48,399 nucleotides of DNA. Origin: Nanobdellota archaeon (GTDB lineage Archaea; Nanobdellota; Nanobdellia; Pacearchaeales; GW2011-AR1). A program made the translations under genes and the position numbers. The notes below the pieces were generated by a model, which saw only the letters and a program-made list of their open reading frames with translations, was not told where the DNA came from and did not search any database. The stretch lies in the NCBI GenBank assembly GCA_038046005.1, contig JBBSXB010000004.1, positions 1 to 48,399 of the forward strand, in the 5' to 3' direction. Positions within the stretch are counted from its first letter, which is position 1; each line of letters starts with the position of its first letter. Positions 44,498 through 48,143 of the stretch are shown in pieces.

Positions 44498-44907
44498 TGA
44501 TCTGTTACTGTAACAATATTCCCTGACAAATATCCGTGCAGTGTTGTTTTTTTAGTCAGCACAATAGGTAATTGAAGCACTAGCATATTAAAAAAAAATA
44601 AATCAAAAGGAAAAAATATCCAAAATAATAAAGTTGAGAAACTTAAAGTGTATAAAACTACATATATCAAGTGATTTCTTTTGGGATATTTCTTTGCATA
44701 TTTTGTTTTCATAAGTATCATTCCAATACATCTATTATCATTGAAAATTAAAAAAGATAAATTGTATACAAAAAATATAATTATTAATATCAACTTTCTT
44801 GTTAGACTGTCTGTAATCAAAAAATAAAACGGGACAAATATTATTAACACTATAATCACATTAATTGCAGAAGTTGCCACCTTTTGAAATGTAGATGTTT
44901 CTCGCAT
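44494..44907 (-). CDS. RDD-like membrane protein
   Basis: Four TM helices; RCIGM and TLHGYLSG motifs. Confidence 0.6.
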   Translation of the reverse strand: MRETSTFQKVATSAINVIIVLIIFVPFYFLITDSLTRKLILIIIFFVYNLSFLIFNDNRCIGMILMKTKYAKKYPKRNHLIYVVLYTLSFSTLLFWIFFPFDLFFFNMLVLQLPIVLTKKTTLHGYLSGNIVTVTDH

Positions 44908-44941
44908 AATAAGTATTATGCATTAGATTTTATAAACGATT

Positions 44942-46377
44942 CTATAGTTTCGACTTTATATGTGCTAAAACGCAGTTAATCTCATCAAAAGTTATCGACT
45001 CATCCTTTATTCTTTCTTTTATCTCTCTCAGCCTTTCATCTTTGTTTTTTATATTGGAATAAATAATAAATATTTTTTTCTTTTCCAAAACCTTTGAGAT
45101 TGGTACTTGCTTGTGTTCAATCAAATTAGCAAGATGCTCCCAGACAGTTGATTCTTTAATCTTTCTTATTTCTGCAATCTTTTTGATTTTAATTCCCTTA
45201 GAATAAAGGAAAAGCGTTTTCTGAACACTAAACTTAGCTTCGCTTTCTTTTATTTTATTAACAAAATTAATATTATTTTTAGTATTGATCATTTCCCCAT
45301 CAATCTTGAAAGACTGGTTGAACCATTTTACAATATGTCTCCTTAATTTGTATGTATCAGCATGAGAAGCATATGCAAGCCAGCCTTCCAATGATTCAAC
45401 TGCTTTTTCTCTTGTTAAAAATCCATTCTTAAACAAAACCTTTAGTTTGCCGAATTTCCTTTCAAAATTTTCTATGTTGCTTTTTCTTAATAATTTATAA
45501 TTGTAGAAAATTCTAAATCCAAGAAAAACCACTCCATTTTCAAGCTTCAATATCTTGGATTTTCCTGAATGAAGTTCCAGTTTTAGTTTATCAGCTATAA
45601 AATTATTAATTTCATCTTTCCATATTTTAAGCTGTTCTTTGGAATTATGGAGAATGACAAAGTCATCAACATATCTGACATAATACTTTGCCTTTAATTT
45701 TTGCTTGACAAAATAATCCAATTCATTAAGGTAAACATTGGCAAAAAACTGCGAAGTTAAGTTGCCAAGAGGCATTCCTTTTTGAAAAACTCGTTCTTCT
45801 CGCGACCCCGCTTCAAACTCCTTGCCAATCCCATCGCGAAATCGCTCGCCCCCCCCCAACTGTTTTTTAGAATTTGTTTTATAAGCCAGATGACTTTTTC
45901 ATCTTTAATTTTTCTGCTTACAATATTGATTAATACTTCATGATCAATCTCCTCAAAATAATGCTTTATGTCTGCCTTCAAAACATAGCAATTTTTAGTG
46001 TTATTTCTTGAGACTTTTCTCTTGAATTTATCAAATCTCTCAAGAGCTTTGTGCGTTCCTTTTCCAATTTGATTTGCGTGAGAGTCATAAATAAATGATT
46101 TTTCAAATACTGGGACAATCAAATTGCACAAAGCATGGTGGACAACCCTATCTCTGAATGCAGATTTTGAAATCTTTCTGGTTTTTGGGTCTCTCAAAAT
46201 AAAGGTCTTAAGCTTGTGTGGTTTGTAAGTTTGAGAAATTAATTCTTCTTGTAATTTTTTTATTTTCCCAATAAGGTTTTCCTCAAATCTTTTTACATAC
46301 CTTCTTTTAGTCTTGCCTTTTCTTGCTTTTTTGTAAGCTAGAAGAAGATTTCCCAAAGAGCATATTTTATCGTACAT
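44942..46377 (-). CDS. DGR reverse transcriptase with C-terminal HTH_40-like domain, split by a -1 frameshift near 45849..45868
   Basis: 5' ORF: DPKTRKI, FRDRVVHHAL, KGTHKA, LKADIKHYF. 3' ORF: GMPLGNLTSQFFANVYL, YVRYVDD, FLG, ending in IAEIRKIKESTVWEHL. The joined product would be about 478 aa. Confidence 0.9.
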
Positions 46378-46411
46378 TTTAATATAAGCCCTAGAATCAC
46401 GCTAAGATATT

Positions 46412-46493
46412 CAACGAAACGACCACGGTCATTGCCAAGACCGTCCGCGCCACCAGCATTAGACCTATTGTCAAGCCTATTGACGTACCACGC
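46412..46493 (-). repeat. DGR template repeat (TR)
   Basis: Non-coding 82-nt copy of both VRs with 14 adenines; mismatches to the VRs fall at TR adenines. Confidence 0.95.
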
Positions 46494-46690
46494 CCGGCAA
46501 ATAGCTTCTTCACTTTAGTTTGCTCACTGCTGTTTCACTTTGTGTCACAGCTGTATTTTATAGCAACATTGTTGCCCTAGTGAAAAAGCCTGTAACCTAG
46601 CTCACTTCAATCTCTAAAGATTGGATTCTAGGGTGATAATTTTCAAGAAAAATTGTATAAAAATATATAGGTTGTAGAAAAATTATATTA

Positions 46691-47371
46691 CTAAGCTGTT
46701 TTTTTAGAAACGCCAGCGCCTCCGGCGCTAACCCCAACGAAACGACCACGGACATCGCCAAGACCGCCCACGCCACCAGCACTAGACCCATAGTCAAGCC
46801 ACCTGACGCACCACGCTCTTAATGTAGGAACATCAATTGCAGAACCTAAATAAATTCCCATGTTCTTATCATAGCTAAATCTATCTTTAGTTTCTTTGAA
46901 TACAAAATCAGCATATTCTTCAAGCAAGTTTTTATCCCTTGCAAGAGTTTGCCATAAAGGATTTTTTCTTGCCTGTCTTGCACTTAATAAATCGCCAGTG
47001 TATTTTTCCAAATCAGATTTTTTGAATTCTGCTCCCTGAATAGTATTGTAAACTCCATCAGGCAAAACCAATGCTCCTGACCTTAACTGGCTTTGAGGAT
47101 TAATTCCTCTTAATTCTTTTGAGTCTAAAGCTATTTTTATTCTTCCATCAGGATGATAAACAACTACGTCTCCTGTGTCAAAATAATTATCAACATAGGA
47201 TGATCTTACTTCATTGTTAACAGGAAGCTTTCTTAATTCAAGTCTTCTCTTCATAAGTCCTGAAACAGACAAAGGAGTTCTTCCATCAGCTATCAATTTA
47301 GGCATTTGTTCAACATTTCTGCCATAGAATTCAGCATAAGTCACAGGAGATTCGTTTAATGTTAAAGCCAT
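46691..47371 (-). CDS. DGR target protein 1 (C-terminal VR, CLec-like fold expected)
   Basis: VR at the 3' end, ending RGRFVG; paralog of 47373..48143. Confidence 0.92.
   Translation of the reverse strand: MALTLNESPVTYAEFYGRNVEQMPKLIADGRTPLSVSGLMKRRLELRKLPVNNEVRSSYVDNYFDTGDVVVYHPDGRIKIALDSKELRGINPQSQLRSGALVLPDGVYNTIQGAEFKKSDLEKYTGDLLSARQARKNPLWQTLARDKNLLEEYADFVFKETKDRFSYDKNMGIYLGSAIDVPTLRAWCVRWLDYGSSAGGVGGLGDVRGRFVGVSAGGAGVSKKTA
46715..46729 (-). promoter_or_regulatory. DGR homing hairpin 3' of VR1
   Basis: AGCGCC-GGA-GGCGCT; absent after TR. Confidence 0.85.
46735..46816 (-). repeat. DGR variable repeat VR1
   Basis: 11 mismatches to TR in 82 nt, 9 of them at TR adenines. Confidence 0.95.
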
Positions 47372-47372
47372 T

Positions 47373-48143
47373 TTATTTTGTCCTTATCTCCAAACCGCCA
47401 AGATTTTGATTTATAACATCTAATGATTGTGCTAATGTAGGTCTTAAAATTCGCGCGTTTGGCGCCTCCGGCGCTATCCCAACGAAACGACCACGGTCAT
47501 TGCCAAGACCGCCCGCGCCACCAGCAACAGACCCATAGTCAAGCCTATCGACGCACCACGCTCTAAGCTTTGGCACTTTGCCTAATGAGTCTAAATAAAC
47601 GCCCATATTTGTGTTTGAATTTGTTTGTTTTGCAACCCAAGTTGAGTATTCTTGAAGCAATTTTTCATCTTCTGCAAATTCTGCTGGAACTTCGCTAGGA
47701 TGCCTTGCTAAAATTCTCCAGACTTTGTGGCCAAGTATTTCATCCTGAGTAAGATGACTTTCAGTTTTTCCCAAGTTGCTCATTGCAACCTCAATTCCAT
47801 TTATAGATTGATATTGTTCTGGAGTAAGCTCAATTGCTCCAGAGCTTAATCTTGCATTTGGAGTTATCAGTCCTAAAGCCTTTCTTCCGTTCTCTGTTAT
47901 TTTTTGATTTCTATCAACACTAAAAACGAATTTTGCCTTTCCACTGTCTTTTGAATTGTAAACAATTAAATCAGAACTATCAAAATAATTAGTTTTCCAA
48001 TCAGAGAATGTTGCGCTCTGCCCCATTCTGTAATGCATAAGATTGGCGACGCTCATTGGTATTCTGCCATCTGCTAAAAGCTTTGGCATTGCGTCCACGT
48101 TTCTTCCTTCGTATGTATCAATAGGATTTACTGATAGTTTCAT
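47373..48143 (-). CDS. DGR target protein 2
   Basis: VR near the 3' end; shares GRNV..MPKL.ADGR.P.SV and NMG.YL motifs with target 1. Confidence 0.92.
   Translation of the reverse strand: MKLSVNPIDTYEGRNVDAMPKLLADGRIPMSVANLMHYRMGQSATFSDWKTNYFDSSDLIVYNSKDSGKAKFVFSVDRNQKITENGRKALGLITPNARLSSGAIELTPEQYQSINGIEVAMSNLGKTESHLTQDEILGHKVWRILARHPSEVPAEFAEDEKLLQEYSTWVAKQTNSNTNMGVYLDSLGKVPKLRAWCVDRLDYGSVAGGAGGLGNDRGRFVGIAPEAPNARILRPTLAQSLDVINQNLGGLEIRTK
47462..47474 (-). promoter_or_regulatory. DGR homing hairpin 3' of VR2
   Basis: GCGCC-GGA-GGCGC. Confidence 0.85.
47480..47561 (-). repeat. DGR variable repeat VR2
   Basis: 7 mismatches to TR in 82 nt, all at TR adenines. Confidence 0.95.

Follow-up and report, generated by a model that had tools for sequence, protein, structure and literature searches.

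Programmed -1 ribosomal frameshifting is known in dnaX, in insertion sequence (IS) elements and in a fucosidase of Sulfolobus, and transcriptional slippage is known to rescue homopolymer frameshifts at the poly(A) tracts of endosymbionts and, again, in IS elements. Contingency loci built on simple sequence repeats (SSRs) have been described in bacteria, as the poly-G/C tracts of Campylobacter jejuni and the SSRs of Haemophilus influenzae, Neisseria and Helicobacter (PMC4965091, PMC5084427, PMC2831843), and in the coliphages T2 and T4 (bioRxiv 10.1101/2025.10.21.683753), the available part of the latter preprint stating that such loci are described in archaea too. Here we analyze a diversity-generating retroelement (DGR) of a Nanobdellota archaeon whose reverse transcriptase (RT) gene is broken at a run of nine G residues (G9), on contig JBBSXB010000004.1 of assembly GCA_038046005.1 (48,399 nt, forward strand; hereafter the window, meaning the whole stretch of DNA that was analyzed). 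Comparison with its homologs leads us to consider it probable, with moderate confidence, that G9 is a hypermutable SSR acting as a contingency (phase-variation) switch of the DGR RT, and that switches of this kind are widespread in DPANN archaea.

The RT gene lies on the minus strand and is read in two halves, which stand one base out of register at the G9 tract, inside a GC-rich insert. The features that define the break are the following (ORF, open reading frame):

45757..46377, minus strand: N-terminal half of the RT (ORF1, 206 aa), matching positions 8-107 of the RVT_1 profile
44942..45859, minus strand: C-terminal half of the RT (ORF2, 305 aa), in the -1 frame, matching RVT_1 positions 109-205 and carrying GMPLGNLTSQ, YVDD, the thumb and HTH_40
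45849..45857, minus strand: G9 homopolymer on the coding strand, the frame-breaking SSR; G10 or G7 would join the RT halves
45779..45848, minus strand: GC-rich insert after the tract, an insertion relative to the 60-nt canonical loop, starting CGAGCG
45773..45775, minus strand: ATG of the family-wide GMPLG motif, a possible restart codon for the C half under a rival reading weighed below
45862..45868, minus strand: in-frame A-AAA-AAC heptamer, judged a chance feature

Across the break the minus strand reads, in the ORF1 frame, CTA AAA AAC AGT TGG GGG GGG GCG, and the loop holding the tract sits between the LKADIKHYF and GMPLGNLTSQ motifs. G9 is an uninterrupted repeat within the gene whose length sets the reading frame, as in a contingency locus, and neither half of the RT carries any other lesion. 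The GC content is 0.50-0.58 over 45790-45879, compared with ~0.25-0.38 in the remainder of the gene (~30% GC overall), and both the split of the RT and the composition of the insert exceed chance. Among the homologous loci a 59-nt extra insert is peculiar to the window; the insert at 45779..45848 contains a second, decayed copy, GGGG...GAACGAGTTTTT, and in our reading of the letters it may consist of two copies of one cassette. A preliminary description of this stretch, made from its letters alone, had placed the heptamer at 45868..45862, G9 at 45857..45849 and the catalytic half in the -1 frame, had noted that G10 or G7 would restore the frame of two otherwise intact halves, and had set the segment, compositionally unlike the rest of the gene, in a variable loop before the PLG motif. 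All of this holds, the loop being variable among homologs; the heptamer and the adjoining stem-loop that it described are at chance level, as detailed below.

On the reading we favor, the tract occupies an RT loop that would tolerate insertions, and slippage of one G during DNA replication would shift the catalytic half into or out of frame. Most cells here would carry G9 as an OFF allele, G10 or G7 variants being the ON alleles, and the switch would gate the adenine mutagenesis of two target genes; in other clades, repeats of this kind lie in a second loop or just past the start codon. We infer that switching in this population is frequent and reversible and that OFF alleles make no RT, with some leaky rescue by slippage of RNA polymerase or of ribosomes on the G run being possible.

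The evidence that carries this proposal comes from homologous RT genes. A protein search with ORF2 returned many relatives comprising the C half only (276-326 aa), some of them on long contigs, together with full-length relatives of ~465-480 aa from metagenome-assembled genomes of Nanoarchaeota, Pacearchaeota and Woesearchaeota, in which the loop is variable and often reads GGG or RERE. Homologous loci were then gathered with ORF2 as bait (15 loci), with an alignment of the C half as bait (80 metagenome and 80 genome loci), as the 30 best full-length matches from a scan of 401 genomes of the phylum (119 of which matched), and as 12 regions hand-picked for looking split. This gave 184 unique loci overall, 176 without the hand-picked ones and 152 from C-half baits alone, and counts on the last set are unbiased as to frame because its members were fetched with those baits alone. 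In each locus the N and C halves were anchored by tblastn and the loop between them was read; a locus was scored as a repeat locus when the loop held a run of at least eight Gs or a (GA/CT) dinucleotide of at least five units.

A loop repeat was present in 44 of the 152 bait-only loci (poly-G of 8-12 or (GA/CT)n). Only 18 of these were in frame and 26 were out of frame, compared with 103 in frame and 5 out among the repeat-free loci (Fisher p = 6e-13, n = 152), and two of those five shifted loci hold near-repeats, namely G7 in L114 and an interrupted tract in L193. The registers of the repeat loci were scattered 18/15/11, which is not different from uniform (p = 0.43). With the hand-picked regions excluded, 33 of 176 unique loci have a G8-G12 tract in this loop; loop tracts of at least six Gs (n = 35) comprised twelve of G9, eight each of G10 and G11, three of G8, two of G12 and one each of G7 and G6. 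Among 37 poly-G loci, 15 were in frame, 13 need +1 and 9 need -1 to join the halves, and the (GA)n/(CT)n loci showed the same out-of-frame behavior (6/5/4). Repeats occurred at 4.34 per kb in the loop, at 0.087 in the rest of the RT and at 0.030 in the flanks. A repeat in the loop looks like a trait of the family: some 30% of the RT genes in this DPANN clade have poly-G or (GA)n there.

The shifted genes were otherwise well preserved. In a three-segment frame analysis (175 loci, biased picks included), genes with a repeat in either of two loops were in frame in 21 cases and shifted in 38, and genes without one were in frame in 107 and shifted in 9. Stops within the conserved segments A, B and C were found in 3/175, 0/184 and 1/184 loci, respectively, and the YxDD motif was intact in every gene scored, whether repeat-shifted (38/38), repeat-bearing and in frame (21/21) or repeat-free and in frame (105/105). 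Judged by these features, repeat-shifted genes appear no more damaged than in-frame ones, as would be expected of OFF alleles that are otherwise intact. Some loci, among them L110, L207 and L115, retain interrupted, in-frame relics of a tract, which look like switches locked ON. Close DNA pairs differing in tract length were not found among the fetched loci, which come from dereplicated collections; the closest pair with a tract in both members, L100 (G11) and L136 (G12), is 81% identical. At or near the tracts, several assemblies contain stretches of N, a tandemly repeated tract module or G/C runs of 27-50 (L158, L201, L060, L104, L230), which suggests that assemblers struggle there.

Repeats were also found at other positions of the RT gene. 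One RT clade, at the top of the tree, has a second hot spot, flanked by the KGTHxAIKRFE and GYVLKA motifs and placed ~131-161 nt ahead of the loop anchor, and its loci are mostly out of frame; seven carry poly-G (L121, L123, L126, L188, L189, L197, L201), two poly-C (L092, L214) and two (AG)n (L187, L215). A third hot spot consists of poly-G or poly-C a few codons past the RT start (L022, L025, L035, L162, L166, L167, L168), where several tracts put the start codon out of frame and others leave it in frame. In L016 a tract precedes the RT start by ~57 nt. The homolog P0002 aligns to the solved chain 8ub7_A ("Reverse transcriptase", E = 1.3e-43), which we take to be the Bordetella enzyme, its motif 4 facing IGSLTSQ; both repeat loops fall at gaps of this alignment and are therefore insertions relative to the solved enzyme.

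The tracts share their downstream context as well. The four letters after the tract were C, G, A and A in 36, 37, 33 and 25 of 48 instances, often with a short T run next, and L188, whose tract is in the second loop, has post-tract letters identical to those of L005, whose tract is in the first. This motif is read in different frames in different loci, and the same context follows G runs outside RT genes. It also resembles the reverse complement of the 3' end of the template repeat (TR) of the DGR, over just 8-9 nt. Twenty tracts of at least ten Gs (L220-L239) were sampled outside the RT matches listed in the phylum scan. Three of them turned out to be in RT genes after all (L221, L227, L232), and others fall within 30 codons of the start of long frames or at junctions between frames, in diverse genes that include a GHKL-type ATPase, an MG2-domain protein, PadR, a KaiC-like ATPase and a DUF2341 protein divided between two frames; still others code for glycine motifs in housekeeping enzymes. 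This type of tract is not exclusive to RTs, yet RT genes are strongly enriched in it, and where CGA(A) comes after a G run close to the 5' end of a non-RT gene, that gene is possibly a further contingency gene of DPANN archaea.

The element that the RT would serve is complete. Two target genes, the TR and the RT gene, which begins 35 nt past the TR, follow one another on the minus strand, and each target gene ends in a variable repeat (VR):

47373..48143, minus strand: target gene whose 3' end is VR2
46691..47371, minus strand: target gene whose 3' end is VR1
46412..46515, minus strand: TR, ending 35 nt before the RT start codon
46735..46838, minus strand: VR1, at the 3' end of the target gene 46691..47371
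47480..47579, minus strand: VR2, at the 3' end of the target gene 47373..48143

Over the full 104 nt of its local alignment to the TR, VR1 shows 12 mismatches that fall on TR adenines and 10 that do not, the latter mostly at the 5' edge of the alignment, and VR2 has 9 at TR adenines and 4 elsewhere, so that a TR stands next to VRs that differ from it mainly at its adenines, as in known DGRs. The RT half-genes between them cover RVT_1 and include YVDD, as expected of a DGR RT, and LGNLTSQ in ORF2 matches the motif-4 signature of DGR RTs, (I/L)GxxxSQ. The C-terminal HTH_40 domain lies at 44966..45229 on the minus strand (E = 2.1e-17). It is present in part of the RT clade only, many of the phylum matches stopping near residue 335 of the 464-aa query.

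A sister lineage was found in both frame states. P0049 is a whole RT of 487 aa, on 5 contigs, whose loop reads ...SFGGGANEFCKKGMPLGN; P0121, a protein of 203 aa from the same 90% cluster, is identical to it over residues 1-190 and then continues ...GGGQTSFARKECLLAI; and P0089 (289 aa) is 100% identical to its residues 199-487. The tail of P0121 is, by back-translation, the exact next-frame reading of the P0049 codons, and therefore one G more or less explains the difference. Both states recur on several contigs, the longest on record for either short form being 10,279 nt. At the protein level, the whole and split states of this lineage fit a change of one G.

For the lineage of the window itself, Logan contigs from four runs of two studies showed 0 differences and 0 gaps over 44900-46441, and all had G9. 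These runs are possibly the source samples, and contigs drop minority variants; because contigs of four runs from two studies agree, G9 is a reproducible majority allele. The VRs tell of recent activity. In one run (X1) there are 12 departures from the window in VR1, of which 9 fall on TR adenines, and 8 in VR2, 8/8 on TR adenines, with two alternative VR2 contigs, although RT and TR are identical to those of the window. Adenine mutagenesis has therefore acted very recently, though the majority RT allele is out of frame. The three non-adenine differences in VR1 of this run, and one outside the VR, fall at window positions 46740, 46770, 46802 and 46658. In three further runs (X2, X5, X6), contigs of low depth (3-4 vs 12-65) connect 47375 with 48167 through 24 different letters, a minority variant without the second target gene. 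No RNA run was listed as containing this stretch.

Taken together, these data bear on the outcomes that the preliminary description had said would tell against a switch. Accurate reads uniformly showing G10 or G7 would have pointed to an assembly error, but the contigs (as opposed to raw reads) of four runs all give G9; VRs without variation would have pointed to a fixed, inactive population, but those of X1 differ, mostly at TR adenines and with two VR2 alleles, again in contigs; and homologs without the motif were envisaged, but the G tract recurs in the same loop with split frames, its companions, the heptamer and the stem-loop, not being conserved. Its proposal of a slipped-strand contingency locus is well supported by the homologs, through recurrent loop repeats, three registers, intact genes and a sister lineage in both states.

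The genome as a whole (874,611 bp in 15 contigs, GC 33.4%, 98.24% complete by markers) contains only three G/C runs of at least eight, and all are in DGR RT genes, so that these repeats are over-represented there against the genome background, as in contingency loci. One is G9 of the window. Another is a G10, again on the coding strand, in a second copy of the DGR RT gene that lies at the end of contig C9 (C9:1-800, L002); that copy has a TAA stop in its HHAL motif and is put one base out of frame by the G10, located after YVDD, in a different loop. This copy has its own TR-like stretch upstream, and the contig ends 65 nt past the tract. The third is a C48 at the start of contig C8 (C8:1-330, L003), abutting either the remainder of the C9 copy or a near-identical RT; by visual comparison there are 3 mismatches in the overlap. 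Profiles for MutS_V, MutL (DNA_mis_repair) and NucS_C had no match in this 98.24% complete genome, the same profiles matching 11, 11 and 6 of 14 reference genomes used as controls.

Several other explanations of the split gene have to be weighed. We hold it unlikely that the locus merely leaks, with every allele making a little, tunable full-length RT without any change of the DNA, through stutter of RNA polymerase or ribosomes slipping in both directions on G9-G12, and with the DNA register drifting near neutrality. The clustering of tract lengths at 9-11, which is about the length of the RNA-DNA hybrid, the near-uniform frames of the repeat loci and the altered VRs of a lineage whose majority allele is out of frame are all consistent with such leakage, and a G run would permit re-pairing of tRNA-Gly in both directions; but (GA)n/(CT)n repeats, which are poor substrates for one-base slippage, show the same frame statistics, the sister lineage P0049 differs in its DNA, and leaky expression could coexist with DNA phase variation instead of replacing it. 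Extremely improbable, in our estimate, is a programmed -1 ribosomal frameshift at A-AAA-AAC assisted by a downstream stem-loop, which the preliminary description had proposed as well. The heptamer is in frame 4 nt ahead of the tract, and from that point the -1 frame stays open; yet the long open frames of this genome contain 5.08 in-frame X_XXY_YYZ heptamers per kb (1.77 per kb for A_AAA_AAN), ORF1 alone having six, and one lies within 30 nt of the tract in just 6 of the 37 poly-G loci and in one of the nine that need -1, that one being the window. Thirteen of the 37 would need a shift in the opposite direction, and the 59-nt extra insert is specific to the window. Nor is the fold of the 101-nt RNA 45870..45770 out of the ordinary, at -23.2 kcal/mol vs -21.18 +/- 2.46 for shuffled sequences (z = -0.82), 36 of 200 shuffles folding as stably. 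Two candidates were tried apart from these and given up: a hairpin flanking the tract, whose mean stem of 1.48 equals that of the permuted control (1.48), and an archaeal intron as the insert, since in-frame homologs are translated straight through and insert lengths vary.

It is distinctly unlikely that the split is simply tolerated, the N and C halves being made as two polypeptides, the latter restarting at the GMPLG ATG, and assembling into an active RT that makes frameshifts in the loop harmless. In 39/39 out-of-frame loci the stop of the N frame lies -25 to +56 nt from this ATG (16 nt past it in the window), gene callers start many homologs exactly at MPLGN, and split genes are a known trait of Nanoarchaeota. 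The ATG, however, is no less conserved where the gene is unsplit, AT-rich DNA is expected to have out-of-frame stops close by, and a tolerated split would leave unexplained why uninterrupted repeats persist, in the second loop and after the start codon as well. The interrupted, in-frame relics, for their part, look like switches locked ON. A plain pseudogene, in which a recent one-base slip killed the RT and left the DGR to decay, would account for a majority allele out of frame in 4/4 runs and for the stop and shift of the genome's other RT copy; we regard it as very unlikely, given that both halves lack other lesions, that 1.5 kb of RT and TR are without a difference between runs whose VRs differ at TR adenines, and that repeat-shifted genes across the family are no more damaged than in-frame ones. 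An error of assembly or sequencing is highly improbable: homopolymers are indeed error-prone, and assemblies break or carry Ns at the tracts (L158, L201, G27 in L060, C48 on contig C8), but G9 was reproduced across runs and studies, dinucleotide repeats have an equal out-of-frame share, and both states of the sister lineage recur on several contigs.

A number of observations weigh against a contingency switch, or temper it. The second RT copy has a TAA stop in addition to its G10 shift, and therefore some repeat-bearing copies decay. No tract-length variant of the window's lineage appeared in the four runs, in whose contigs minorities are invisible, and no in-frame protein identical to this RT was present among the best 120 matches listed from the protein collection; the VR differences could predate an inactivating slip. 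The larger locus sets include regions chosen as split-looking (L049-L060) and the best full-length matches (L019-L048), leaving the bait-only counts as the unbiased ones, and since related genomes are not independent the p-values overstate the case, the effect size being what counts. A FastTree tree of 180 loci has 36 changes of repeat class vs ~47 in shuffles (the latter figure from five printed values of 200 shuffles), which implies poor resolution of the tree or else frequent gain, loss or copying of the module. Finally, G runs of at least ten occur in 79/401 genomes of the phylum, also outside RT genes.

We nevertheless rank slipped-strand switching at the DNA level first, because the unstable repeats, scattered frames, intact genes, several positions within the gene and locked relics match bacterial contingency loci. 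A broader proposal is more tentative, and we put it forward as a possibility that we ourselves doubt: DPANN archaea apparently without mismatch repair may carry a dedicated switch module, composed of a G run, CGAAC and a short T run, which recurs, in different frames, in at least two RT loops and at the 5' ends of other genes. It would form a two-tier system of evolvability, in which an unstable repeat gates, or by slippage at the RNA level dials, a retroelement that rewrites surface-protein genes, and the module may be passed on by insertion or conversion instead of forming anew at each site.

No natural diversity generator is more extreme than the DGR, and little is known of what restrains its activity. 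If our reading is true, a heritable, reversible RT switch would allow a lineage to hold on to a useful variant while exploration continues in a minority. The three-segment analysis found 38 of 59 repeat-bearing RT genes split, and these are called as fragments; surveys may discard such RTs as pseudogenes, and the DGR activity of DPANN archaea may therefore be undercounted. The comparisons also provide evidence of SSR phase variation among archaea whose genomes are tiny. No published account of repeats or frameshifts within DGR RT genes was found in our literature searches, in agreement with what had been supposed at the outset, the supplements of DGR surveys, which may list RTs excluded as frameshifted, lying outside the search. 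In the accessible part of one DGR paper, "frameshift" refers to VR indels (PMC5758913); a term look-up in the accessible parts of two others returned none of the repeat or frameshift terms (PMC4372165, PMC8144416); and homonucleotide repeats are reported, in the portion available, for 16S genes of Nanoarchaeota (PMC3769629).

Compared with known systems, the locus shares with programmed -1 frameshift sites an in-frame A-AAA-AAC upstream of a GC-rich segment, but differs from them in that heptamer and structure are neither conserved nor above chance and homologs need shifts in both directions. With cases of transcriptional slippage it shares a homopolymer of at least nine at the frame break of an otherwise intact gene, though the runs there are of A/T and here of G. 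As a retroelement it resembles the Bordetella phage-type DGR, with RVT_1 and YVDD, an LGxxxSQ-type motif and a TR/VR pair with adenine-directed mismatches, and departs from it in the C-terminal HTH_40 domain of its RT and, relative to the solved RT 8ub7_A, in a repeat-bearing insert of this clade where the alignment gap marks a short linker. Like the phage contingency loci (bioRxiv 10.1101/2025.10.21.683753), as far as the available part of that preprint describes them, it employs hypermutable repeats suited to bet-hedging outside classical bacterial pathogens, those loci belonging to coliphages and not to the enzyme of a retroelement. The resemblance to bacterial contingency loci, as they are portrayed in the accessible portions of the sources cited above, extends to a mono- or dinucleotide repeat within the reading frame whose length sets that frame, tracts of 8-12, scattered frames and a gene otherwise intact, and to the frequent placement of tracts near the 5' end, as in the third RT hot spot. 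What sets the locus apart from these is its host, a DPANN archaeon whose genome gave no match for MutS, MutL or NucS, the position of its tract in mid-gene, in a loop of the polymerase, and the gated gene, which encodes an enzyme of targeted hypermutation in place of a surface or restriction gene.

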